Positions 1,095-18,253 are shown, counted from the stretch's first letter. The stretch: 19,656 nt of DNA from an uncultured Ectothiorhodospiraceae bacterium (GCA_964635785.1 CAZWQC010000010.1:1-19656); one strand, 5' to 3'. Made by a program: numbers and translations. Notes: generated by a model from the sequence alone, not told the origin.

Positions 1095-1880
1095 ATGGCT
1101 GATATCCTTTCGTTACTAAATCTTGAACATCGACAGATGCGCGCAGCGCTTACAAGGTTGGAGCAGTATTGTGACGGTGGAGTGTCATTCGATCGAGACG
1201 GCTTTGCCAAGTGCTTTGACTTTGTCGCCGGATTTTTGGCGCATTGCCATCACGTCAAAGAGGATCTCCTGTACCGCAAACTGCTTGAGCGCAAACCCGA
1301 CAGCATTGACCCACTCCCCGATCTGCCCACGGCCCACCAGGATCTCAACGCCCGACTCGATGATCTACGCGAGACAATGGCGATTCACGGGGACCATAGC
1401 GAACCACTGCATGTTGCCCTGACGACCGCTACATTGGCGTTGGTCAATTACCTTCGCCAGCACTTTGACGCGGAAGAACGGACTTTCTTTCCTTTAGCGA
1501 TAGCCCACCTGACGCGCGATGATTGGGATACGATCGACTATGCCGTATTCGACGATTCAACACCGGTTGTCGACCCGGCATTGGAAAAAAACTTCCGTTC
1601 CTTGCTCGATGCTTGCAACGTCGAGGGTGCACAACCATTGAGCGTACTCGCAACCGAAGCGATTGACGGCCCAGGCGACACAATGGCGGAATTCAACCTC
1701 ACGATGACACAGGGAAACCATACGGCGCGACTGAACAAGATCAACGGCTCGGCGTATTGCTTGCTCGATGGTGGCACAACATTGGTGACCTTCCCGGCCT
1801 GCGACGAAAAGCTCGCCGCGTGGAGTGCCTGGTATTTCTTGTTGGGGAAATTCACAAACACGCAGGCATACCATACCTAG
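1095..1880 (+). CDS. Hemerythrin-like (HHE cation-binding) domain protein with a ~100-aa C-terminal extension of unknown function
   Basis: The 261-aa ORF has spaced His/Glu motifs typical of the hemerythrin fold: LEHRQMRAAL, HCHHVKEDLLYRKLL, HQDLNARLDDL, LRQHFDAEERTFFPLA. A weak SD lies upstream. It is divergent from the gene at 1..795. Confidence 0.65.
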   Translation: MADILSLLNLEHRQMRAALTRLEQYCDGGVSFDRDGFAKCFDFVAGFLAHCHHVKEDLLYRKLLERKPDSIDPLPDLPTAHQDLNARLDDLRETMAIHGDHSEPLHVALTTATLALVNYLRQHFDAEERTFFPLAIAHLTRDDWDTIDYAVFDDSTPVVDPALEKNFRSLLDACNVEGAQPLSVLATEAIDGPGDTMAEFNLTMTQGNHTARLNKINGSAYCLLDGGTTLVTFPACDEKLAAWSAWYFLLGKFTNTQAYHT

Positions 1881-2057: not shown

Positions 2058-2885
2058 ATGGTTACTGCACTCAGTTTGATTGTTATCGCGTTATATCTCG
2101 CGACTGCGGGCATGATTACCCAACGTATGCGACGTTTTGCAGACATTGCCGATCATTCCCCGGGACGTTGGGTTTGGCTTGGCACTTGGATCGCTGCCGT
2201 CGTGATACATGCCTTCGTGTTGGCGCCGACCTTGTTCACCGATGCCGGTCTTGACCTTGGATTCTTTCACGCGCTGTCGACCATCAGTTGGCTGATCGCG
2301 TTGCTACTCTTACTCGTTGCGATCAGCCGGCCGATGGAAAACCTCGGGTTGGTGCTGCTACCGTTGTCGGCCTTCGGCGTCGGTATGGGGCTCGTCTTCC
2401 CAGAAGTCCCGTTTTATCCCGAGCCGGGCCAATCCGGCTTGCGTTTGCATATTTTCGTGTCGTTGTTAGGCTATAGCGTGCTCACCATGGCGGCTTTGCA
2501 AGCAATCGTTTTGTACTTCCAGAACCGCCATCTCCACAACCACAACCCCGGTGGCTTGATCAAGGCGCTTCCCCCTTTGGCTGACATGGAAAGCTTCATG
2601 TTCCGTTTGCTTTGGCTCGGTTTTGTTTTGCTTTCTCTGGCGTTAGCCAGCGGATTCTTCTTTCTTGAGAATATTTTCGCGCAGCGTCTGGTCCACAAAA
2701 CGACCCTCTCGATGACGGCTTGGGCCGGTTTTGCCGTGTTATTGTTTGGCCGGGTTCGCTACGGCTGGCGCGGACGCCGTGCGGTGGCCTGGACGCTCGG
2801 GGGGTTCTCCGCATTGTTGTTGGCCTATTTCGGCAGCAAGCTCGTCATTGAGATCATTCTGCCGGCCGTGGGATCCGCTTCATAA
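2058..2885 (+). CDS. ypjD: Inner-membrane protein of the cytochrome c assembly (CcsA/ResC-like) family, YpjD-like
   Basis: The 275-aa product is highly hydrophobic with about eight predicted TM segments. WG-rich motifs such as WLGTWIAAV, WLGFVLLSL and WAGFAVLLFGRVRYGW are typical of the CcsA-like family. It sits directly upstream of a CNNM/CorC gene, as ypjD-yfjD does in enterobacteria. Confidence 0.7.
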   Translation: MVTALSLIVIALYLATAGMITQRMRRFADIADHSPGRWVWLGTWIAAVVIHAFVLAPTLFTDAGLDLGFFHALSTISWLIALLLLLVAISRPMENLGLVLLPLSAFGVGMGLVFPEVPFYPEPGQSGLRLHIFVSLLGYSVLTMAALQAIVLYFQNRHLHNHNPGGLIKALPPLADMESFMFRLLWLGFVLLSLALASGFFFLENIFAQRLVHKTTLSMTAWAGFAVLLFGRVRYGWRGRRAVAWTLGGFSALLLAYFGSKLVIEIILPAVGSAS

Positions 2886-7215: not shown

Positions 7216-7290
7216 GGTGTAGACAGGAGGAATCGAACCTCCGCCCACTCGAATGAAATCGAGTGCTCTATCCGACTGAGCTATATCCAC
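7216..7290 (-). tRNA. tRNA-like gene with canonical acceptor, D and T arms but an abnormal anticodon arm (7-bp stem with 6-nt loop, or 5-bp stem with 8-nt loop). Anticodon assignment is ambiguous; candidates are CAU or UCA.
   Basis: The reverse complement reads GTGGATA-TA-GCTC-AGTCGGATA-GAGC-A-CTCGA-TTTCAT-TCGAG-TGGGC-GGAGG-TTCGATT-CCTCC-TGTCTAC-A-CC. The acceptor stem has 7 bp, two of them G-U pairs. The D-arm is GCTC/GAGC with the conserved AGTCGG sequence. The T-arm is GGAGG/CCTCC with a TTCGATT loop. The variable loop is 5 nt and the body is 73 nt. CCA is not encoded. Confidence 0.6.
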
Positions 7291-7667
7291 GGGTGTTGAA
7301 CGACGACAGACACGCGGAACACACGGACACAATGTGTCGTGCGCCAGACGGGCACACCGAACCCGTTATCGCAGTCGTGTTAGCCGTTGGTTCAACTTGG
7401 TACGTCGGTCAAGTATTGAACTTGGCGCGGTGGTGTCCCCGACCGAGACCCGACGTATGAAATATTTTTATAAGATCTTTGGTTCCCGCCCCCCCCATGT
7501 TGGGGAGGGGCCAGGAATTGAGGTTCCGATCACTTAAGCAAACATCAATATCACAGAGCCTGATAGGCTAGCCAATACTCGGCCGTTGTCAATATTAATC
7601 GTTTCAAAAGTTCTCACATCCCTTTCCCGCAGGGGGGAAGGAATGCGAGAGACGTTCCTGCAAAAAC

Positions 7668-7692
7668 TCATCGTCAGTCACTGACGAGCCAA
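7668..7692 (-). terminator. Possible intrinsic terminator for the DUF3108 gene: hairpin CGTCAGTGACTGACG followed 5 nt later by UUUUU on the minus strand
   Basis: A 6-7 bp inverted repeat at 7678-7692 is followed on the minus strand by ATGAGTTTTTGC. It lies ~115 nt downstream of the DUF3108 stop at 7807. The spacer between the stem and the U-run is longer than ideal. Confidence 0.3.
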
Positions 7693-7806
7693 CCCGCGGC
7701 GATCGTCACGAAACGCCGTGGCAAACGTTGAACAGGTTATCCGCGCTCGCCCTGACCCGATCTGTACGCTACGTGGCATAGGGGCACCAGAACAAACTCG
7801 AGCTCA

Positions 7807-8964: not shown

Positions 8965-11262
8965 TCATGGTTGGAAAAATCGGTAACTGTTGCGGCCGTC
9001 TTGCTTGGCTCGATACATGGTTTGGTCGGCATGCCGGAGCAGCGTGTCGGCATCCCCTGAATCAATTGGGTAAATCGTCACCCCAATGCTGGCCGAGATC
9101 TGTGCCCGTTCGCCTTCGATTGCGTACGGTTCGGCGATGCGTGCAAGGATGCGATCGAGGGTTTCGATGACGCGGCTCGGGTTGTCCAAATCGCCGAGTA
9201 GGACGCAGAATTCGTCGCCGCCCAAGCGAGCGACCGTATCGCTTTGTCGGACGCTGGCATTCAGTCGCTGGGCGACGGCCAATAACAGTTCGTCGCCGGC
9301 TTTGTGTCCGAGGGTGTCGTTGATGGGTTTGAAATTGTCGAGGTCGAGGTAGCAGACGGCGAGTAAGCGATGATCTTTCGTCGCGTTGGTCAGACCATGG
9401 GCGAGCCTTTCCATCAGCAGGCGGCGATTCGCCAACCCGGTGAGGGGGTCGTAGTAAGCCATTTGCTTCAATTGGTTCTGGCTAGCGTACAGTGCATCCA
9501 TCGCTTGTTGCCTGCCAACTGCACCGCCAATCAAGTTGCCGAGATAGCGTAATACCAGGGCTTCATCGTGGGTCCAGTGCCGCGCCTTGGAACTGGTGGT
9601 CAGTGCAATGCAACCAAGCAGGTCTTCGCCGAAGGTGACTGGGGCTGTCAATAGCGAACGAACCCCGCGGCTTTGCAAATAACGGCGTTCATCGGCCGGG
9701 ATGGTCACGGCGTCGGTAATGTGTGACAGAACGACGATTTCGCCTTGCTGTAACGGCTGTAACGCCTTTGGCAGCATTTGCGGATCCAGAAAAAACTGAC
9801 CATCGTTGGGCTTCTTCGGCGGTTTTTTGTCCCATACGTAATGACGGTGGGTTGCCTGACCGGCTGTATCGAACAAAAGTATACCGCATCGTTCCGTGTT
9901 GGTTTCTTCACCAATTAGCGTCAGCGCCCGTTCGATCATGGCGGCCAGACTGAGTGTTTTGTTGTTGAGCAGATGAGCGGAGATTTCGGTTAGGCGAAGT
10001 TCCAAGTCGGCCCGGTAGCGGATTTCGTTTTCGAGGTGGATGCGCTCGGTCTCATCACGGCCGACTGCGTAAATGAGTCTAGTATCGAGAAATGCCCGGG
10101 CTGACCAAGCGATGGTGCGATAATGACCGTCACGGCAACGCCAAGCCGTTTCAAACGAATAGACTTGACGGCCGGCGAGAATTTGCTGAATCGCTTCGCG
10201 CGTGCGGGTGATATCGTCGGGATGGAGGAACTCGACGATCGACCGATTCAGGATTTCCTCGGTAGCGTAGCCGAGGATGTTTTGCCAGGCCGGATTGGCG
10301 CGAACCAGGTATTCATCCGGACCGATGACACAAAACAAATCCAAGGCCAACTCGAAGAACTGGTTTTGGGCTTCCAAGGTCAGTTCACGTTCGGTGATAT
10401 CTTGCACTGTGCCGATGCGGCGAATCGGCTGCCCGTCGGTAAACTCGGTATGGCAACGTTCGTAGACGTGTTTGATGCGGCCATCGGGCAGCACGAGCCG
10501 ATATTGGTAATGCCAGTCGGGTTGTCGGTCGGCTGCGAGGTCGTGTTGATAAATCACCCGACGGCGGTCACCTTGGTGAACGCGTTGGATAAACGCCGCG
10601 AAGCTCGGCGTCGTGTCCGGGTCGATCTCCCAGATTCGATACAACTCGGCAGACCACCACAACTGCTTTTGGTGCAGATCATGCTCCCAGTTGCCCAGAC
10701 CGGCGACGCGCTGGGCTTCATTCAGTAAGGCTTGCTGGTGGGCGAGTTGTTGTTGATAGTGATAGCGCGCGTGGATATCGCGGACTTGCACGAGAATGCC
10801 GCAGATATTGCCTTCATTATTGAGCCTGGGCGTATAGCAAATTTCTTGGCGGCGGTGTTGGCCGTCACGATGGGGGCAAAATGCTTCGTAAACCACTCGT
10901 GTGCCGTTAAGGCAGCGCTCGAGATTGGGTTTGACTTGGGTTTCGTAGAATGGCTTCGGTATGACCTCGCTGACGTGCCGGCCAATGGTTTGTTGCAATG
11001 TGCGGCCCCATGATCGCAAGTAGGCGCGATTGGCGGCGCGATAAATGAAGTCGCGGTCAAGCGCGGCAAATCGATCCTCGCTTTGTTCGATCAGCTCCCG
11101 ATAAACCCCGAGCGTGTTGTTATCACCGCGGTTTGCCAACGCTATGGCTTGCTCAGTAGGGTGGCCGCATTGGTACGCACCCTGTGCCGGGTTGCCAAGG
11201 CGAGGTCTGGGCTGATTGGCTGCGCAAGGGTTGTCGGTGCTGGTGTAAGACGGCGTTGTCAT
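8965..11262 (-). CDS. PAS/PAC-PAS-GAF-GGDEF diguanylate cyclase with an intact GGDEF motif and an RxxD I-site
   Basis: The C-terminus reads YDPLTGLANRRL...CYLDLDNFKPINDTLGHKAGDELL...RQSDTVARLGGDEFCVLL, which is a complete GGDEF domain. A GAF-like region and at least two PAS/PAC modules lie upstream. I used the ATG at 11262 (MTTPSYTS...). The supplied track extends the ORF to a TTG at 11340. Neither start has a clear SD. Confidence 0.85.
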   Translation of the reverse strand: MTTPSYTSTDNPCAANQPRPRLGNPAQGAYQCGHPTEQAIALANRGDNNTLGVYRELIEQSEDRFAALDRDFIYRAANRAYLRSWGRTLQQTIGRHVSEVIPKPFYETQVKPNLERCLNGTRVVYEAFCPHRDGQHRRQEICYTPRLNNEGNICGILVQVRDIHARYHYQQQLAHQQALLNEAQRVAGLGNWEHDLHQKQLWWSAELYRIWEIDPDTTPSFAAFIQRVHQGDRRRVIYQHDLAADRQPDWHYQYRLVLPDGRIKHVYERCHTEFTDGQPIRRIGTVQDITERELTLEAQNQFFELALDLFCVIGPDEYLVRANPAWQNILGYATEEILNRSIVEFLHPDDITRTREAIQQILAGRQVYSFETAWRCRDGHYRTIAWSARAFLDTRLIYAVGRDETERIHLENEIRYRADLELRLTEISAHLLNNKTLSLAAMIERALTLIGEETNTERCGILLFDTAGQATHRHYVWDKKPPKKPNDGQFFLDPQMLPKALQPLQQGEIVVLSHITDAVTIPADERRYLQSRGVRSLLTAPVTFGEDLLGCIALTTSSKARHWTHDEALVLRYLGNLIGGAVGRQQAMDALYASQNQLKQMAYYDPLTGLANRRLLMERLAHGLTNATKDHRLLAVCYLDLDNFKPINDTLGHKAGDELLLAVAQRLNASVRQSDTVARLGGDEFCVLLGDLDNPSRVIETLDRILARIAEPYAIEGERAQISASIGVTIYPIDSGDADTLLRHADQTMYRAKQDGRNSYRFFQP

Positions 11263-11535
11263 CGGTTTAGCCCAATGCGAACTGATAAGTTTAGTATCGT
11301 CGCCTTCGTCGGGGTAAGCAATTCGGGAAAATACTTGCAACGAACTAGGCAGAGATGGTCAAGCGGATGGTCTGTTGCAATCGTCGCGAGATGGTTCGGC
11401 AAACCGGGTTAAATGTCGGTTGTATACCCAGGCAAATTGCGATGTTATTAGTTTTTTGAGAGCTTTTCGGTGTTTTGAGCTGGATATGCCAGTGCAATAC
11501 GCGTGTGGTTTAGCCGTTCGGCTAGCGCTGGCTTC

Positions 11536-11574
11536 TGCAAAAAGCGATATGGCAGGCTGCCAGTTTGTGATCGC
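11536..11574 (-). terminator. Intrinsic terminator downstream of the FixL-like kinase gene
   Basis: On the minus strand the sequence reads GCGAT-cacaaact-GGCAG-cc-TGCC-at-ATCGC-TTTTTGC. This is a compound hairpin followed immediately by a U-run. It lies ~75 nt after the stop at 11647. Confidence 0.55.
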
Positions 11575-11646
11575 TTAAGTCTTTTGGGCAAGTGTGTGGT
11601 GACAGGGGAAGCGCGCAGACACTGGCGACGGTGGCCGGGCGATGGT

Positions 11647-13218
11647 TTACGGGTTCGCTTGATACGCTGGCGCATAAGGCAAAGTAAAAGCAATGCAGGC
11701 GCCAGGGTCGCGATCGGGGTCTCGATGCTCGAGCCAAAAGCGACCGCCGTGGGCCTCGATAATCGCGCGGCAGACCGCCAAACCGATGCCGGTGCCGGCA
11801 GTGCGGTTTGTGATGGCGCTGTGCAGGGCAACACCTTGATAACCCGGTGGGAGCCCTGGACCGGTGTCGGCAACCGTGATGCGGACCTCGTTGGGTAAGG
11901 GTGTGGCGACGATGTCAATGAGTCGCCTGGGCGTATTGCTGCGGGAAATGGCGTCGATCGCGTTTTGTATGAGATGCAGTAGCACCTGCTCGCCTTGTGC
12001 CGGGGTAATCCATAGCCGTGGCGTGTCGTTGGGAATGAACGTGCGAATTTGGATGCGCCGGGCATCCGCTTGGGCTTTGATGTGCTCGATCGCGGACATG
12101 CACAATTCGGCGCAGACGACAAGCTCGGGTTCGGGTTGGCCACGGCGAAAAAGATCGCGGGTTTGAGCGAGTATCTGCCCGAGTAAGTGCAGTTGTTCGG
12201 CGGCTTGTTGGAGGGGCTCGGTCAGATCGGTTGAGACGTCGTTACCAGGGAGCAGTCGTTCCGAGAGCATTTCCAGGTGTAGCCCGGCGGCCGTCATGGG
12301 TTGCGCGAGTTGTTCCACCAGCGACGTCACCAATGTGTTCATGGCTTCGGTTTTCTGAGCGTTGGCCATGGCGCGACGGCGTCGGGCGATTTCTTCTTCG
12401 GCGAGCTTGCGATTGGTGATGTCTTTGTGAACGATGACGGCACCGGAGAAGGCCGTTTGCCTCAAGGCAGTGACCGTAAACTCAAACCAGCGGGTCCGTT
12501 GTGGGCCGATGCAGGCGTACTCCATCATGAAGTGGTCACGTTGACTGGCTAAAACCAATTGGATGCCCTGATAGGCACGCATCGCGTCGGCATCACCGCT
12601 TGCCGCGGATTGTTGACAGACGGCGAGGTAATCGATGCCAAGCCCCTCTTGCAGGGCGATCGATGCCCCGTTCGTCCGTGCGGTCTGGCGCCAGCGGTCG
12701 TTGACCAAGATGATGTGGCCGTGCGCGTCGATCACCACGATAACGTCTGGAAACGTATTTAAGAACCTTTGCTGAAAGGCTTGTTGCTCGGCGAGCTGTT
12801 GTTCGGCTCGCCATTGTGGCAGGGGATCGAGCATGACCCCGATGCAGCAGCTGCCGCCGGTTCGGTGCGGTCGTGTCGACATTAATTGAAAGGCTTGCGC
12901 CGCGATGCTGGCATGGCGAGGTCTGAGCATGAGTTTGTGCCGGGTTTTGGCGGGCGCCGCGAATACGCGGCGCAGATGGTCGATAAACGGTTGGTAATCG
13001 CCAGCGGCGAGGTGTTCGTGAAAGGCGGCCTGCAGCAGTGTCTGTGGTCGCTGTCCGAGTAGCTTGGCACCAGCCACATTGATTTGCCAGATTCTGCCTT
13101 GCGTATCGAGTAGTACGCGACCGATGGGCGCGAGGTCGCACAAGGGTCGATCACAATAGGCCAAGTGACAGGGTTGGTTTGCCGGCGTGCTTGTCTGTGT
13201 GTCGGTTGGCTCGGTCAT
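11647..13218 (-). CDS. FixL-family PAS-PAS sensor histidine-kinase homologue in which the H-box phosphoacceptor His is replaced by Glu; the HATPase_c domain is intact
   Basis: Two PAS domains are followed by a dimerisation/H-box region, EAMNTLVTSLVEQLAQPMTAAGLHLEML. This aligns residue for residue with the FixL H-box SAMGEMASALAHELNQPLAAI, with E at the His position. I confirmed the reading by translating the DNA directly. The ATP-binding motifs are present: the N-box (VLLHLIQNAIDAI), G1 (VADTGPGLP) and G2 (GTGIGLAVCRAIIEAHGG). I chose the ATG start at 13218; a GTG alternative lies at 13308. Confidence 0.8.
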   Translation of the reverse strand: MTEPTDTQTSTPANQPCHLAYCDRPLCDLAPIGRVLLDTQGRIWQINVAGAKLLGQRPQTLLQAAFHEHLAAGDYQPFIDHLRRVFAAPAKTRHKLMLRPRHASIAAQAFQLMSTRPHRTGGSCCIGVMLDPLPQWRAEQQLAEQQAFQQRFLNTFPDVIVVIDAHGHIILVNDRWRQTARTNGASIALQEGLGIDYLAVCQQSAASGDADAMRAYQGIQLVLASQRDHFMMEYACIGPQRTRWFEFTVTALRQTAFSGAVIVHKDITNRKLAEEEIARRRRAMANAQKTEAMNTLVTSLVEQLAQPMTAAGLHLEMLSERLLPGNDVSTDLTEPLQQAAEQLHLLGQILAQTRDLFRRGQPEPELVVCAELCMSAIEHIKAQADARRIQIRTFIPNDTPRLWITPAQGEQVLLHLIQNAIDAISRSNTPRRLIDIVATPLPNEVRITVADTGPGLPPGYQGVALHSAITNRTAGTGIGLAVCRAIIEAHGGRFWLEHRDPDRDPGACIAFTLPYAPAYQANP

Positions 13219-13353
13219 GTTCGGTGTTGAATCGCTAACCCCGCTGAACGGATCGCGAAAACGGCTTCGTCGGATGAAAGTCGCGACGAGGCGGTCCGTC
13301 GGCGCCACGGTAAAACGCCGCTACGCCAACGGGCCGCCAGGTTTTCGGGTGAT

Positions 13354-13665
13354 TCAACCGGCGAAATGGAAGAGCCGATCGATACCTGCCGCCGACATCC
13401 GATGGCGAAACTCCGGCGGGCAGTGCAAGAGATAGACTTGTTGTTGCGCGGCTTTGGCGCGGCGATGGAGGTTGAGTAACAAGGCCATACCCGAATCACG
13501 CAGTTGCTTGGTTTCGCGTAGATCGACCATGACGGTGCCGATGGTCTTGGCTCGCATCATGTGGGTCACTGAGCGCATTAGCGCTGATCTGGAAATATCG
13601 AGTTCGTCACCGACATCGACAATAACGGCGTCACCATGTTGAGTCGCTTGAGGTGTATGGGGCAT
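13354..13665 (-). CDS. STAS-domain protein (SpoIIAA/RsbV-like anti-sigma-factor antagonist) with the conserved phosphorylatable Ser
   Basis: The 103-aa product contains DAVIVDVGDELDIS...GTVMVDLRETKQLRDSGMALLLNL...VYLLHCPPEFRHRMSAAGIDRLF, which matches the STAS fold. Its DSG motif corresponds to DSSG/DSTG in SpoIIAA/RsbV. An AAGGAG SD lies 8 nt upstream of the ATG. The gene ends 45 bp upstream of the kinase-like gene on the same strand. Confidence 0.75.
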   Translation of the reverse strand: MPHTPQATQHGDAVIVDVGDELDISRSALMRSVTHMMRAKTIGTVMVDLRETKQLRDSGMALLLNLHRRAKAAQQQVYLLHCPPEFRHRMSAAGIDRLFHFAG

Positions 13666-13950
13666 TGATGCGTCTCCTTTGGTATTCGCTTGTCGTCGGA
13701 ATCAATGAAATACTGGCTTAAACGCGCCAGCGCCTGCAGTACTGCCATCATCGCTGACGACGCGATGATGCGGTTTCGTGCACAGGCAATGGTGTCAAAG
13801 TATAACGATCGTTGGCAATCAGGGAATCCGTGCGAATACGGAGTGGTGTGGTCGCGGTGCAGCGACCAGCGCCCGGCCTAGGCGACTGCAAGACCGAGGC
13901 CGCATTGGCGATTCGATGCGAGGCGCGAGCGATCATTGGCAAGCTGATCG

Positions 13951-14604
13951 CTAATCAAAGTCGTTGCGAGCGTGAATCTCGGCGATATGGCAGAGCTCGG
14001 CGAGTTTGCGTACCTTGAGTTTTCTCATCAGATGAGCGCGGTGGCTTTCTACGGTGCGATGACTGATATCGAGTTGGCGCGCGATTTCTTTGCTACTTAA
14101 GCCGGCGAAGGTAATGAGGCGCATGATTTCCAGCTCACGAACGGTGAGTGTTCCGACCAGCGCTTGAATCGATTGGGCATCGGCGGAGGGTGCATTGGGC
14201 GGGTTTGTGGGTCGCTCCGAAGTGGCCACCTGATCGTGTTCTGCCATGACTTCTTCGATGCGGTCGACGAGCTGGCGACGAGTGAAGGGTTTTTCGATGA
14301 AGTCCGCGGCACCGCCTTGCATGGCACGAACCGTTGTTGGGATATCGCCGTAACCTGAGATGAAGATGCAGGGTAGCGTATAACCTTTGGCGCGAAGATT
14401 GGCTTGGACCTCGATGCCGGTCATGTCGGGCAGGCGAAGATCGATCACCAGACAACCGGGCTGTGGCGTTTGATAGAATTCAAGAAAATCGGTGCCGGTG
14501 GGAAAGGCTTGGACGCTGTAACCGGATTGCGACAAGGCGATGGTCAGCGCTTCGCGTAGCGGTTTGTCATCATCAACCAGAAAAATGCTCGGTCGTTGGC
14601 GCAT
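13951..14604 (-). CDS. FixJ/NarL-family response regulator (REC domain plus LuxR-type HTH)
   Basis: The receiver domain has the acidic pair (FLVDDD), the phospho-Asp (LVIDLRLPDMTG), the conserved Ser (ISGYGD) and the conserved Lys (IEKPF). The LuxR HTH reads LTVRELEIMRLITFAGLSSKEIARQLDISHRTVESHRAHLMRKL. I preferred the ATG at 14604 because AAGGA lies 8 nt upstream. The supplied track's ATG at 14667 would add 21 residues to the N-terminus. Confidence 0.85.
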   Translation of the reverse strand: MRQRPSIFLVDDDKPLREALTIALSQSGYSVQAFPTGTDFLEFYQTPQPGCLVIDLRLPDMTGIEVQANLRAKGYTLPCIFISGYGDIPTTVRAMQGGAADFIEKPFTRRQLVDRIEEVMAEHDQVATSERPTNPPNAPSADAQSIQALVGTLTVRELEIMRLITFAGLSSKEIARQLDISHRTVESHRAHLMRKLKVRKLAELCHIAEIHARNDFD

Positions 14605-14965
14605 CGGTTTTCCTTTATGCTTGCCCGCGTCGTGACGGCGGCAGTGACATGGCTGGTATGGGCACAACCGGTATCGCGTGACCTGGTGCTATGGCGCATG
14701 CGGGTTGCCTCGGCGAATAATCCAAAAAAACGCCGGTTCTGCGTCAGTCCTGCTTGCTGATGTTGCACTGCACGATGGTGACCGGTAACGCCCATGACGG
14801 GTAAAATGCGCTGTTACGGTCGCTGCCTGGTGCCTAGTTGCAAGCGCCCGAGTATATCGGTTATTCCACCGAGAATGAAGCCGCAGGTCTGTGGAAAAGA
14901 GCGATTTGGTCGGATGTTGAACGCGTTTGCCGGGTGGTCATGTTCGCATGGTTGCGTTAGCGCTT

Positions 14966-17900
14966 TTAGCCCTCCCGTCGAATTGCCGGGCCTTGCGCAT
15001 CAATGTGGGTTTTTTCGGTGGGATCGGCTGCTGCGGTTTGTAGGGCGTGATCGAGAAATGCCTTAAACGGCATGGGTCGGCCAAACCAGTACCCTTGAAA
15101 GCGCTGACAACCGATGCTCAAGAGAAAATCGAGTTGTTCGGGTCGCTCTACGCCCTCGGCGATGACCGGTAAAGACAGGGCTTGGGCCATGCTCATTGCG
15201 GCACGGACGATAGCGGCATCGCTCGGGTCGGTGTCGACGTCGCGGACGAGGGTCTGGTCGATCTTGAGGGTGTTCAGCGGCAAGTATTTCAACTGGGCAA
15301 GGGATGAATAGCCGGTACCGAAATCATCCAGCTCGACTTCGATCCCCAAGGTTTGCAGTTCGCTCAAGATGTTTTGGGTGCGGGCGAGATCGGCAAACAG
15401 CGATCCTTCCGTGAGTTCTAAATGTAACCGTGTTGTGGGTGTGCCATATTTTGCGACGGTGGCTTGGACTTGCTCGACGAAATGCGGCTGGGCGAGTTGT
15501 CGGGCACTGACGTTCACCGAAACGCATAGGGACGCGGTGTGAGGATAGCGTTGGAGTGTTTGTAAATCGGCGCAGGCGGCGTTCAGGACCCATTCGCCGA
15601 GCGGCAAGATTAAGCCGGTTTCCTCCGCCAGGGGAATGAACTCGCCGGGGGATACGGTTTGTCCGTCGGGGGTAAACCAGCGCAGCAGCGCTTCGGCACC
15701 CAGCAAATGGCCGAAGCGGTCGACTTGGGGTTGGTAAAACAATTGAAGTTCGTCGTGGTCGAGCGCTCGCCGCAGGGCGGCGGCTAGGTTTGCCCGCTGA
15801 TCGATGGCGCGTTGCATCTCGGTACTAAAAAATCGAATCGTGTCGCGACCGGCCCGTTTGGCCGCAAACATGGCGACATCGGCTTGTTTCAGCAGATCAT
15901 CAACGTTACTGCCATGGCCGCAAAAAAGAGCGACACCGATGCTCGCAGAGCAATGGAAGGCTTGGTCGGCACCGTGGAGGTCATAGGGTTTACGCAAGAC
16001 GTCAAGCAGTTGTTCGGCGATGCGTTCGGCATGAACGGCCGCTTGTCTTTCGTCTTCACCAAGCTGTTCGCAAAGCAAGATGAATTCATCGCCACCGAGG
16101 CGTGCGGCCGTATCGGTCGCGCGTAATTGCTTGCGCAGGCGCTGGCCGACCTGGACGAGCAGGGCATCGCCGGCACTGTGGCCGCGGGTATCGTTGAGTG
16201 TCTTGAATTCGTCGAGGTCCAGCATGAACAGAGCGCCGTACTGTTGATCGCGTTCGGACTTGATCAAGGCGTGTCGGAGTCGTTCAAGTAACAGCCGACG
16301 GTTGGTCAAATTAGTGAGTGGATCGTAAAACGCCAGGGCGTGAATTTTTTTTTCCGCTGCCTTGTTCTTGGTGATGTCGAAAAAGGTGCCGACGTAATGC
16401 GTGATGACACCCGCGTGGTTTTTGACGGCGGTAATCGATAGCCATTCGGGATAAACGTGCCCGAGTTTGTTGCGGTTCCAGATTTCACCTTCCCAAAAGC
16501 CGGTGTGGTTGAGATGGTGCCACATGGTTTGATAAAAGCTCGGGGCATGACAACCCGATTGCAATAGCCGGGGGTTTTTGCCAATGACCTCGTCGCTGCG
16601 GTAGCCGGTCACTTCGGTGAAGGTATTGTTGACGCGCTGTATGTTGCCTTTGGCATCGGTGATGGTGATGGCAACCTGGGCTTCGAAGGCGATCGCGGCA
16701 AGCCGGGAATCGGTTTCGGCTAATCGCTGTGCGGTATTGTCGAGGTTGATGCCGGTAACACGAACGGGTTTTCCGTTCAGATCGCAGACGCTGCGGCAAT
16801 AGGCTTTGATGTGACGGGTTTCGCCGTCGCCACGCAGCACGCGGAACTCCGCCTCGTGCGGCCCTTCGCTTTCGCGTGCGTCGGCATGCATGCGTTCGCT
16901 GTCGGCAAGATCATCCGGATGAATCAGGGATCGCCAGAGGGCGTGGTCGATACGGTCGTTGGCGCTAAGCCCGTACAACGCGCGCATGCGATGATCCCAG
17001 ACCAATTGTCCCGATTCGATTTGGTCGTCCCAAATGCCGAATCCGGCCGCGCCGACAGCCAAGGCAAGACGCTCTTCGCTTTGCCGTAGGGCTTCGCGGT
17101 GATGGATGGCGTCAACGGCGAACGAGAGGTTGCCTGTCATTTTGTCGAGGAGTTGGGTTTCCTCAGGACCGAAGAAGTTCGATTCGGTGGCGTATATCGT
17201 GAATACGCCTTGAATGTTGCCTGACCAGCACAGCGGGAAAGCGGCGGCGGCGGTGATGTGGTAGCGTTTGGCGGCTTCTGCCCAGATGGCCGTGTTTGGC
17301 GCGGTTTGAAAATCGTTGACGATTTGGATCATGCCGTCGCGAAAGGCACGGCCGGTCGGTCCTTGGCCTTCGGGTCGATCGCCGTGCACGGAAATGCGAA
17401 TGGCCTGCAGATAATGCGTGTTGCCGCTGGCCGCCGCGATTTGCATCCAGCCAGCCGCATCGGGTTTGCCGACCCAGGCTAAGCTGAACTCCCCATGTTT
17501 GACCGCGGTCCGGCACAGTGCCTCGAACAGGGCTTGTTCATGCGAAAAATGCAAAATGGCGTGATTGGTTTCACTCAAGGTTGCGTACAGCCGCTGCCGG
17601 CGGCGCAATTCGACTTCGGCGCGGCTGCGGCTGATGGCGTAGCGAATGGAACGGATCAAGTTGTCGGCAGTGAACTCACCCTTGATCAGGTAATCCTCGG
17701 CGCCGGCTTCGAGTGCGTGCAACGCATTGGTTTCATCCGTGTTTGCCGTCAGAACGATCAACGGCACATCCGGGGCGAGTAGGCGCAGCTCGAATACGGT
17801 TTCCAGGCCGCTGGTATCCGGCAAGCCGAGATCGACGAGCAACAGCTGGACCGGTTGTTCGGCGAGTAGGGTTTTCGCCTGGCCCAGGGTGGGCGCCCAC

Positions 17901-18010
17901 AAGACCTGCTGGACAATTTGATGATGTCGCAGGATGGCTTCGACAAGCTTGGCGTCGCTCGGTTGATCCTCGATCAAAAGCGCGATGGAATGGTCATTGA
18001 AGGCTTGCAT
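14966..18010 (-). CDS. Hybrid REC-GAF-PAS-PAS-GGDEF-EAL protein, predicted bifunctional for c-di-GMP synthesis and hydrolysis
   Basis: The N-terminal REC domain has the phospho-Asp (LLLVDLGLPD) plus LTANTD and LIKGE. A GAF domain and two PAS/PAC domains follow. The GGDEF domain reads RATDTAARLGGDEF, with an RxxD I-site. The EAL domain has the catalytic motifs EALLRW, ELTEGS, DDFGTGYSS, KIDQTLV, AEGVE and QGY. I used the ATG at 18010; a TTG alternative lies at 18031. Confidence 0.9.
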   Translation of the reverse strand: MQAFNDHSIALLIEDQPSDAKLVEAILRHHQIVQQVLWAPTLGQAKTLLAEQPVQLLLVDLGLPDTSGLETVFELRLLAPDVPLIVLTANTDETNALHALEAGAEDYLIKGEFTADNLIRSIRYAISRSRAEVELRRRQRLYATLSETNHAILHFSHEQALFEALCRTAVKHGEFSLAWVGKPDAAGWMQIAAASGNTHYLQAIRISVHGDRPEGQGPTGRAFRDGMIQIVNDFQTAPNTAIWAEAAKRYHITAAAAFPLCWSGNIQGVFTIYATESNFFGPEETQLLDKMTGNLSFAVDAIHHREALRQSEERLALAVGAAGFGIWDDQIESGQLVWDHRMRALYGLSANDRIDHALWRSLIHPDDLADSERMHADARESEGPHEAEFRVLRGDGETRHIKAYCRSVCDLNGKPVRVTGINLDNTAQRLAETDSRLAAIAFEAQVAITITDAKGNIQRVNNTFTEVTGYRSDEVIGKNPRLLQSGCHAPSFYQTMWHHLNHTGFWEGEIWNRNKLGHVYPEWLSITAVKNHAGVITHYVGTFFDITKNKAAEKKIHALAFYDPLTNLTNRRLLLERLRHALIKSERDQQYGALFMLDLDEFKTLNDTRGHSAGDALLVQVGQRLRKQLRATDTAARLGGDEFILLCEQLGEDERQAAVHAERIAEQLLDVLRKPYDLHGADQAFHCSASIGVALFCGHGSNVDDLLKQADVAMFAAKRAGRDTIRFFSTEMQRAIDQRANLAAALRRALDHDELQLFYQPQVDRFGHLLGAEALLRWFTPDGQTVSPGEFIPLAEETGLILPLGEWVLNAACADLQTLQRYPHTASLCVSVNVSARQLAQPHFVEQVQATVAKYGTPTTRLHLELTEGSLFADLARTQNILSELQTLGIEVELDDFGTGYSSLAQLKYLPLNTLKIDQTLVRDVDTDPSDAAIVRAAMSMAQALSLPVIAEGVERPEQLDFLLSIGCQRFQGYWFGRPMPFKAFLDHALQTAAADPTEKTHIDAQGPAIRREG

Positions 18011-18253
18011 GGGCTGTACGTGTTCGTTCAACTCGGAGTGGGGTCACGGATAAAGTACGCAGTGTAACATCTTGGATCACGTATAACGGTAGCACGATGA
18101 CGCGCGGTTTCAGTGTGACGTTGCCAGCGTACTTGCTGCGTGCGGTGATAAACTGACGGGTGGTTTAGGACCACGGTGCAGGGATCGGTTGGCATCTTCG
18201 GGCTCGACGTTGGGCGCAACCCGGCTTGAGTATGCCATAATGGACAACTTTGG

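Follow-up and report, generated by a model that had tools for sequence, protein, structure and literature searches.

A histidine-less FixL-family kinase homologue encoded beside a STAS protein: a candidate binding-only signalling pair in an unsampled gammaproteobacterial lineage

What is the function of a sensor kinase homologue that has lost the histidine it would phosphorylate, when it is encoded between a STAS protein and a diguanylate cyclase, and one gene away from an intact FixJ-class response regulator? The question is raised by a stretch of DNA of 19,656 bp from an uncultured Ectothiorhodospiraceae bacterium (CAZWQC010000010.1), which is a whole NCBI contig and will be referred to as the window. 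Positions 8965-18031 are filled by five co-oriented minus-strand open reading frames (ORFs), all of which are signalling genes by ORF calling and Pfam (Table 1). The five genes, with their domain architectures and coordinates, had been described in a first-pass annotation of the sequence, and the ORFs and Pfam matches confirm that description. Our preferred reading, held tentatively and with somewhat less than even confidence, is that the STAS protein and a kinase-dead, PAS-regulated pseudo-kinase signal by binding and not by phosphotransfer, and that the response regulator is phosphorylated by a kinase encoded elsewhere.

The H-box of the kinase homologue has the sequence SLVEQLAQPM, compared to the family consensus SLVHELxQPL. 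The phospho-acceptor column is occupied by His in 118/118 homologues from a k-mer search (phmmer alignment) and in 146/146 from an exhaustive HMMER search that covered 1.84 billion representatives. Glu at this position is unique to the window protein when compared to these 264 aligned homologues. In the alignment with the transmitter of Bradyrhizobium japonicum FixL (PDB entries 4GCZ and 8A3U, YF1-type chimeras), Glu302 falls on the phospho-acceptor His. The acidic residue at H+1, which serves as general base in autophosphorylation and is a Glu in 15/15 nearest relatives (alignment A1), is Gln303 in the window protein. In addition, two family-invariant Arg residues of the DHp domain are replaced by Leu and Lys, and the family-invariant Phe of the F-box, kept in 15/15 nearest relatives, is replaced by Leu. 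A sequencing artefact is rejected as the origin of the His-to-Glu change, because two substitutions in one codon are needed and the H-box carries further substitutions.

Since the window protein has Glu-Gln where the family has the acceptor His and its adjacent Glu, we infer from the sequence that conventional autophosphorylation and phosphotransfer by this protein are excluded. Both the His-to-Glu change and the inability to carry out phosphotransfer had been proposed in the first-pass annotation; the first is established by the homologues and by the FixL structure alignment, and the second follows from the loss of the acceptor. The kinase had also been called FixL-like. This description holds for the DHp-CA transmitter, which is FixL-class. 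It does not extend to the sensor portion: the NCBIfam model for FixL (NF041777) scores 114 bits against a cut-off of 850 and is aligned to residues 295-547 only, corresponding to DHp-CA, and therefore leaves the FixL heme-PAS unmatched.

Other features of the transmitter are retained. The CA domain (HATPase_c, 63 bits) has the N-box Asn, the G1 motif DTGPG and the G2 motif GTGIGL, and its nucleotide binding is plausibly preserved. The Gln residue at H+4 of the family H-box is kept as well; H+4 is a phosphatase-linked position in HisKA kinases. Columns of alignment A1 were taken as conserved where 13 or more of its 15 full-length nearest relatives agree, and the window protein keeps 20/24 of them in PAS-B (83%), 28/35 in CA (80%) and 13/23 in DHp (57%). 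In a leave-one-out comparison, most relatives retain more than 85% of the conserved columns in every domain. The AlphaFold2 model of the kinase homologue, calculated with A1 as the alignment, has two PAS domains, a DHp hairpin and a CA domain, with a mean predicted local distance difference test (pLDDT) score of 80; only the ATP lid is disordered. The ORF of 1.57 kb is intact despite roughly 33% identity to the nearest relatives.

The neighboring gene encodes a single-domain STAS protein. Its Pfam match (PF01740, 39.4 bits) is above the cut-off of 22.6, and its match to TIGR00377 (38.8 bits) is below the cut-off of 53.45. The single-sequence AlphaFold2 model has a pLDDT of 80, and the top matches found with Foldseek are SpoIIAA, RsbV and RsbS, with template modelling (TM) scores up to 0.80 (SpoIIAA, 1H4Y and 1TH8). 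The closest of these are structures of SpoIIAA and RsbV in complex with GHKL kinases (1TH8 and 6M36). The phospho-loop is ungapped in the alignments with 1TH8_B and with the Haliangium protein 4HYL_A, and Asp57 (in LRD-S-GM) aligns with the phosphorylated Ser58 of SpoIIAA. The next residue of the window protein, Ser58, aligns with Ser59 of SpoIIAA. Helix α2 is predicted to begin at residue 57 in the model. The canonical phospho-Ser position of the STAS protein is thus an Asp, a point beyond the first-pass annotation, and a classical Ser-kinase partner switch is therefore unlikely. The annotated ORFs of the contig include neither a PP2C phosphatase nor an RsbW-type kinase, and no sigma factor.

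In the mechanism that we favor, the pseudo-kinase would have descended from a conventional kinase of the FixL/FixJ type, and would form a two-gene core unit with the STAS protein. It would retain the fold of the DHp hairpin and a CA (GHKL) domain that binds ATP, and would signal stoichiometrically: ligand or redox signals received by the PAS domains, together with the nucleotide state of CA, would control the binding of a partner. The first candidate for this partner is the co-encoded STAS protein, and the neighboring FixJ-like regulator is a second possibility, with a mode of action like that of DivL or NifL. The STAS protein is the likeliest partner because GHKL domains dock STAS antagonists (1TH8 and 6M36) and because MlaB acts on an ATPase without phosphorylation. 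By analogy with these complexes, the STAS protein and the pseudo-kinase would interact physically. Because the STAS protein has an Asp at the phospho-Ser position, the pair appears to be phosphorylation-free, and it may dispense with phosphorylation altogether. Phosphorylation of the FixJ-like regulator, and of the GGDEF-EAL protein at its REC domain, would then depend on a kinase whose gene lies elsewhere.

The pair may have an output onto cyclic di-GMP (c-di-GMP). A link of the kinase homologue and the STAS protein to the c-di-GMP enzymes, including output through the neighboring cyclase, is plausible by analogy, since connections from STAS proteins to c-di-GMP are known. A more elaborate form of this mechanism is a phosphorylation-free partner switch, in which Glu302 would mimic phospho-His and the STAS Asp would mimic phospho-Ser, the PAS ligand and the ATP/ADP state of the GHKL domain would gate the binding and release of the STAS protein, and this protein, once released, would modulate the adjacent cyclase or the FixJ-like regulator. 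We regard this form as quite improbable.

The response regulator is FixJ-class, with a REC domain followed by a GerE helix-turn-helix (HTH) domain. Its best NCBIfam match is FixJ (NF006900) with 171.7 bits, below the equivalog cut-off of 255, and the status of a FixJ equivalog is not demonstrable at this score. The acidic pair, the phospho-Asp, the Thr/Ser and the Lys of the REC domain are all found in the translation, in the segments VDDD, LVIDLRLPD, FISGYGD and FIEKPF. The REC domain of the 1021-residue protein likewise keeps the acidic pair, the phospho-Asp, the Thr and the Lys. Both GGDEF domains have the sequence RLGGDEF with an upstream RxxD I-site, and the signatures of the EAL domain (EALLRW, DDFGTGYSS, KIDQ and AEGVE) are intact. 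These residues agree with the first-pass annotation, which had named a FixJ-type regulator and two flanking c-di-GMP enzymes. The second PAS domain of the 1021-residue protein (residues 450-564) matches the FAD-type PAS1 of NifL (TIGR02938, 90 bits, E value 1e-25) and carries the motif GKNPRLLQSG. There are hints here that flavin or redox sensing may reside in this REC-GGDEF-EAL protein rather than in the kinase homologue.

The lineage is an unsampled gammaproteobacterial one. The best match of the RadA protein encoded on the contig is 66% identical, and the matches are to Gammaproteobacteria of the Thiothrix, Ectothiorhodospira and Thioalkalivibrio type, which are sulfur-oxidising or purple bacteria. 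A scan of 185,579 species genomes anchored on yajC found no relative. The kinase homologue, the STAS protein and the regulator each form a singleton cluster among about 15 billion proteins, with no close homologue, and the STAS search returned only the query itself. More distant relatives of the kinase were found by the exhaustive search. They have the same PAS-PAS-DHp-CA architecture, 29–37% identity over the full length and an H-box of SL(V/I)HEL(T/A)QPL, all with the His residue.

Gene order was compared in 81 related loci fetched from species genomes and metagenomes, with a crude annotation by ORF calling and phmmer. The locus scan used the family alignment A2, as A1 was too divergent for it. 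In 33 loci the gene directly downstream of the related kinase, in the same orientation, encodes a FixJ-like regulator; in no locus does a co-oriented one lie upstream, and in a single locus an adjacent one is on the other strand. Across the 81 loci, phmmer with the window STAS protein, SpoIIAA and RsbV as seeds detected no STAS gene near the related kinases; this search has low sensitivity, and the latter two seeds were approximate. Pfam likewise found no STAS domain in the ORFs adjoining the five closest related kinases. In the closest relative (P0243, locus L001, 2572-5918), a Crp/Fnr gene is followed by the kinase and an overlapping FixJ-like regulator, a layout that resembles that of fixK. 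Two other close relatives (loci L003 and L026), one from an uncultured gammaproteobacterial metagenome-assembled genome and one from Thiobaca trueperi, are orphan kinases near dnaG with no adjacent regulator.

The regulators of the three closest kinases rank 4th, 1st and 7th of 34 by their similarity to the window regulator. Overall, the similarities of kinases and regulators are correlated (Spearman rho 0.37, p 0.03), a relationship that is confounded by taxonomy. This is compatible with the descent of the window kinase and regulator from a cognate pair. Judged from the relatives, the ancestral state is a conventional pair, kinase then regulator, with the His residue, and the window arrangement would be derived, rearranged and degenerate. 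The first-pass annotation had placed a STAS gene inserted between a fixJ-fixL-like pair. Insertion alone does not produce the window order of regulator, STAS gene and kinase, which needs a rearrangement, because the regulator of the relatives is downstream of the kinase (33 loci, compared to none upstream) and no STAS gene is adjacent to it. The annotation had also reasoned that its account would weaken if the regulator and the kinase were a conventional pair in orthologues with the His residue. Such pairs do exist in His-bearing relatives, at 29–37% identity, and by this criterion the ancestral state is a conventional pair.

Several observations weigh against a binding-only STAS and pseudo-kinase pair. 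The window protein is the most divergent member of the family in both DHp and CA (0.80 of the conserved CA columns kept), and its divergent CA domain is compatible with general decay. A second His residue, His314, is located 12 residues C-terminal of Glu302 in helix 1 of the DHp domain. In the STAS protein, Ser58 directly follows Asp57 and could still be a phosphorylation site. Neither candidate start of the kinase gene (13218 and 13308) is preceded by a visible Shine-Dalgarno sequence. The low sensitivity of the phmmer scan applies to most of the related loci. Moreover, with a single sequence on one contig and no orthologues found, purifying selection on the H-box and conservation of the STAS-kinase pairing are unsupported.

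Alternatively, the degenerate DHp domain may still dock a receiver, either the FixJ-like regulator or the GGDEF-EAL protein through its REC domain, and act as a dedicated phosphatase or sink, or as a DivL-like reader of whether the regulator is phosphorylated, in which case the STAS protein would be incidental or modulatory. Both REC domains are phospho-competent by their residues, yet the island is without a competent kinase. The family ancestrally has its kinase and regulator in one operon, the window regulator resembles those of the closest relatives more than most others, and the Gln at H+4 of the H-box is kept. There is a precedent in DivL (PMC4211667), whose structure 4Q20 is recognisable as homologous to the window kinase. 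However, degradation is greatest in DHp, where 57% of the conserved columns are kept and the non-conservative losses include the two invariant Arg residues; this argues against a preserved docking surface. The regulator gene is 285 bp and one gene away, has its own Shine-Dalgarno sequence and is located upstream and not downstream, and the similarity ranking is open to the taxonomic effect noted above. We consider a regulator-directed role of this kind unlikely.

It is also rather improbable that the kinase homologue no longer functions and is left over from a fixLJ-like pair, with five genes that adjoin without forming a circuit. Such a relic would account for the position of the protein as a singleton with no orthologues found, for its divergence in DHp and CA, for the lack of a recognisable ribosome-binding site, and for promoter regions in the island that share no motif of at least 10 nt and give promoter and terminator scans not above chance. 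On the other hand, a 1.57-kb frame has remained open at only about 33% identity to the nearest relatives, PAS-B keeps 83% of its conserved columns, every nucleotide-binding Gly and Asn is retained, and the AlphaFold2 fold is confident. In addition, five consecutive signalling genes on the same strand would be unlikely by chance.

Finally, a Ser/Thr kinase partner switch, in which the GHKL domain of the His-less kinase would phosphorylate the STAS protein (as in RsbW, SpoIIAB, HsbR and SypE) and the phosphorylated STAS protein would change partner, for example to the cyclase (as in HsbA-HsbD), is very unlikely: it would fit the N, G1 and G2 ATP-binding motifs, the STAS gene directly upstream of the kinase gene, the fold nearest to SpoIIAA and RsbV bound to GHKL kinases, a Ser58 that adjoins Asp57 and the known STAS modules that feed c-di-GMP enzymes (PMC4976288; bioRxiv 10.1101/2024.11.25.625174; PMC8256260), but the canonical phospho-Ser is an Asp in two alignments and in the model, the contig has no PP2C phosphatase for the reset, the CA domain is of the histidine kinase (HK) type and not of the RsbW type (Pfam reports HATPase_c but no HATPase_c_2), and the F-box lacks its Phe.

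Table 1. Positions of the island genes and of features within and between them, in window coordinates.
Feature	Position	Strand	Details
REC-GAF-PAS-PAS-GGDEF-EAL hybrid	14966..18031	-	1021 aa; Pfam EAL 1.8e-72, GGDEF 4e-44
Terminator-like hairpin and T-run, 3' of GGDEF-EAL gene	14729..14745	-	weak evidence alone
Alternative regulator start TTG	14667	-	
FixJ-class response regulator	13951..14604	-	217 aa from ATG 14604; Pfam REC and GerE/LuxR HTH
Single-domain STAS protein	13354..13665	-	103 aa; Pfam STAS 5e-10
Asp57 codon GAT of STAS protein	13495..13497	-	HMMER alignments to 1TH8_B, 4HYL_A
Ser58 codon of STAS protein	13492-13494	-	
Alternative kinase-homologue start GTG	13308	-	
His-less FixL-family kinase homologue	11647..13218	-	523 aa; PAS-PAS, weak HisKA, HATPase_c (Pfam)
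Domains of kinase homologue			PAS 33-130, PAS 159-266, DHp 268-358, CA 365-515 (residues)
Glu302-Gln303 codons GAA CAA in place of H-box His-Glu	12310..12315	-	GAA = 12313-12315
Weak terminator-like hairpin, 3' of kinase gene	11550..11562	-	
PAS-PAS-PAS-GAF-GGDEF diguanylate cyclase	8965..11340	-	791 aa from TTG; GGDEF 6e-51
Alternative cyclase start ATG	11262	-	

The island is flanked on one side by a DUF3108 gene, a tRNA gene, an SPFH gene and radA, and on the other side by yajC-secD, which is divergent. Within it, the GGDEF-EAL gene and the regulator gene are separated by 361 bp (with the regulator start at ATG 14604, which is preceded by the Shine-Dalgarno sequence AAGGA), and the regulator and STAS genes by 285 bp. 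The STAS gene has a strong ribosome-binding site, AGGAG. The gap between the STAS and kinase genes is 45-135 bp depending on the start codon, with no terminator-like site in it, and the gap between the kinase and cyclase genes is 306-384 bp, again depending on the start codon. The most economical arrangement has about four transcription units: the GGDEF-EAL gene; the regulator gene; the STAS gene with the kinase homologue, which would be co-transcribed; and the cyclase gene. Gaps of 285 and 360 bp and multiple transcription units had been proposed in the first-pass annotation; the gaps are correct as 285 and 361 bp, and several units are likely from the gaps, the start signals and the hairpins.

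Neither the overall count of terminator-like sites nor a scan for sigma-70 promoters exceeds the shuffled controls. FixK/Fnr boxes (TTGAT-N4-ATCAA) have 9 matches compared to 6.8 expected, which is not an enrichment. No operator-like motif of at least 10 nt is common to the four intergenic regions of the island, and Rfam finds only the tRNA, with no c-di-GMP riboswitch. The intergenic region between the regulator and STAS genes (13666-13950, minus strand) contains two perfect hairpins, TGGTCGCTGCACCGCGACCA and CATCATCGC-N7-GCGATGATG, neither of which has a T-run. They could be a terminator of the regulator gene or an operator, and nothing similar is found in the other intergenic regions of the island.

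The tRNA gene (7216-7290, minus strand; Rfam 60.7 bits) is 1.7 kb from the island, and not about 1 kb as in the first-pass annotation, with the DUF3108 gene between them. ARAGORN gives it a 6-nt anticodon loop, TTTCAT, and does not assign the isotype (Glu or SeC). One added T would produce a normal loop with the anticodon UUC; yet the D-arm is unlike that of tRNA-Glu. The gene has either a homopolymer assembly error or is truly aberrant. A genomic island targeted to this tRNA is rejected, as the signalling genes are on the 5' side of the tRNA and 1.7 kb away, there is no integrase, and the GC content is uniform (0.55-0.60), though no search for a flanking direct repeat was made. The stretch from the tRNA to the DUF3108 gene (7291-7806, roughly 500 bp) has no family-matched ORF. 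A hairpin of a C-run and a G-run (ccctcccc...gggggggg) is located near 7495-7520, with no Rfam match there at the gathering threshold. In the remainder of the contig, a hemerythrin HHE-domain protein (1095-1880, plus strand) and then a cytochrome c assembly (CcsA-like) protein (2058-2885, plus strand) are encoded upstream of the CNNM/CorC and radA genes. The hemerythrin is a possible sensor related to O2 or iron.

Pseudo-histidine-kinases have been studied in only a handful of cases, such as DivL and NifL, and the rewiring of dead transmitters is poorly understood. The window locus has a natural His-to-Glu pseudo-kinase whose His-bearing relatives are found in ordinary kinase-regulator operons, together with a STAS protein that lacks the usual phosphorylation site. 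If the two proteins bind each other, the architectures of two-component and partner-switching systems would be joined without phosphorylation, with the adjacent c-di-GMP enzymes as candidate outputs. As one instance in an unsampled lineage, the locus is of limited value. It represents an uncommon form of the known signalling by dead kinases, found once in this single lineage, and not a conserved new system.

The window locus can be compared with several known systems. Among FixL/FixJ operons, the transmitter of B. japonicum FixL is the nearest in the PDB to that of the window kinase (4GCZ/8A3U, E value 1.9e-28), and it is also matched by the NCBIfam FixL model; the best model for the window regulator is FixJ, and the nearest relatives of the kinase are in kinase-regulator operons, one of them beside a Crp/Fnr gene. 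In contrast to these operons, the window kinase has no acceptor His, no Glu at H+1 and no match to the FixL heme-PAS, the regulator gene is upstream of the kinase gene and apart from it with a STAS gene between them, and both NCBIfam equivalog cut-offs are missed (114 compared to 850 bits, and 172 compared to 255 bits).

DivL of Caulobacter is a pseudo-histidine kinase, with a His-to-Tyr change, that signals by protein binding (PMC4211667). Like the window kinase it is a multi-PAS protein of the HisKA type with the acceptor His replaced and the CA domain kept, and its structure is the detectable homologue mentioned above. The two differ in that the window kinase has Glu and not Tyr, belongs to an unrelated lineage and has no CckA or DivK gene nearby, and signalling by binding in the window would be by analogy. 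We know of no STAS partner described for DivL. The anti-activator NifL controls NifA by binding and not by phosphorylation, and its nucleotide-binding GHKL domain modulates this protein-protein interaction. It shares the PAS-PAS-H-GHKL architecture with the window kinase, and the NCBIfam model for NifL aligns to residues 164-537 of the window kinase with 72.5 bits. The cut-off of this model, 242, is far higher, no NifA or other sigma-54 activator is encoded nearby, and the candidate partners in the window are instead the STAS protein and the FixJ-like regulator. In DesK, the substitution H188E, the same exchange as in the window kinase, is kinase-dead in vivo, and other His-less variants act allosterically (PMC12033271).

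The STAS partner-switching modules include SpoIIAA/SpoIIAB, RsbV/RsbW, HsbA/HsbR/HsbD and SypA/SypE (reviewed in PMC8256260). In the Moorella stressosome, a STAS module feeds a c-di-GMP enzyme (cited in PMC4976288), and hsbAR-hptB with cfcR is another link from STAS to c-di-GMP (bioRxiv 10.1101/2024.11.25.625174). The window has a comparable arrangement, with a single-domain STAS protein of the SpoIIAA/RsbV fold beside a GHKL protein, and, as in the Hsb and Moorella stressosome systems, a diguanylate cyclase next door. It differs from these modules in the Asp at the phospho-Ser position, in a GHKL protein that is of the HK type with PAS and DHp domains, and in that no PP2C phosphatase, RsbW/SpoIIAB-type kinase or sigma factor is among the contig ORFs.

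MlaB is a STAS protein that regulates the ABC ATPase MlaF by binding, with no phosphorylation cycle. Compared to the SpoIIAA and RsbV structures it is a weaker match to the window STAS protein (TM scores of 0.58-0.64), its partner is an ABC ATPase and not a GHKL protein, and the window has no mla context. It is nonetheless among the Foldseek matches, and it shares with the proposed pair a STAS protein that would act on a nucleotide-binding partner by binding only.

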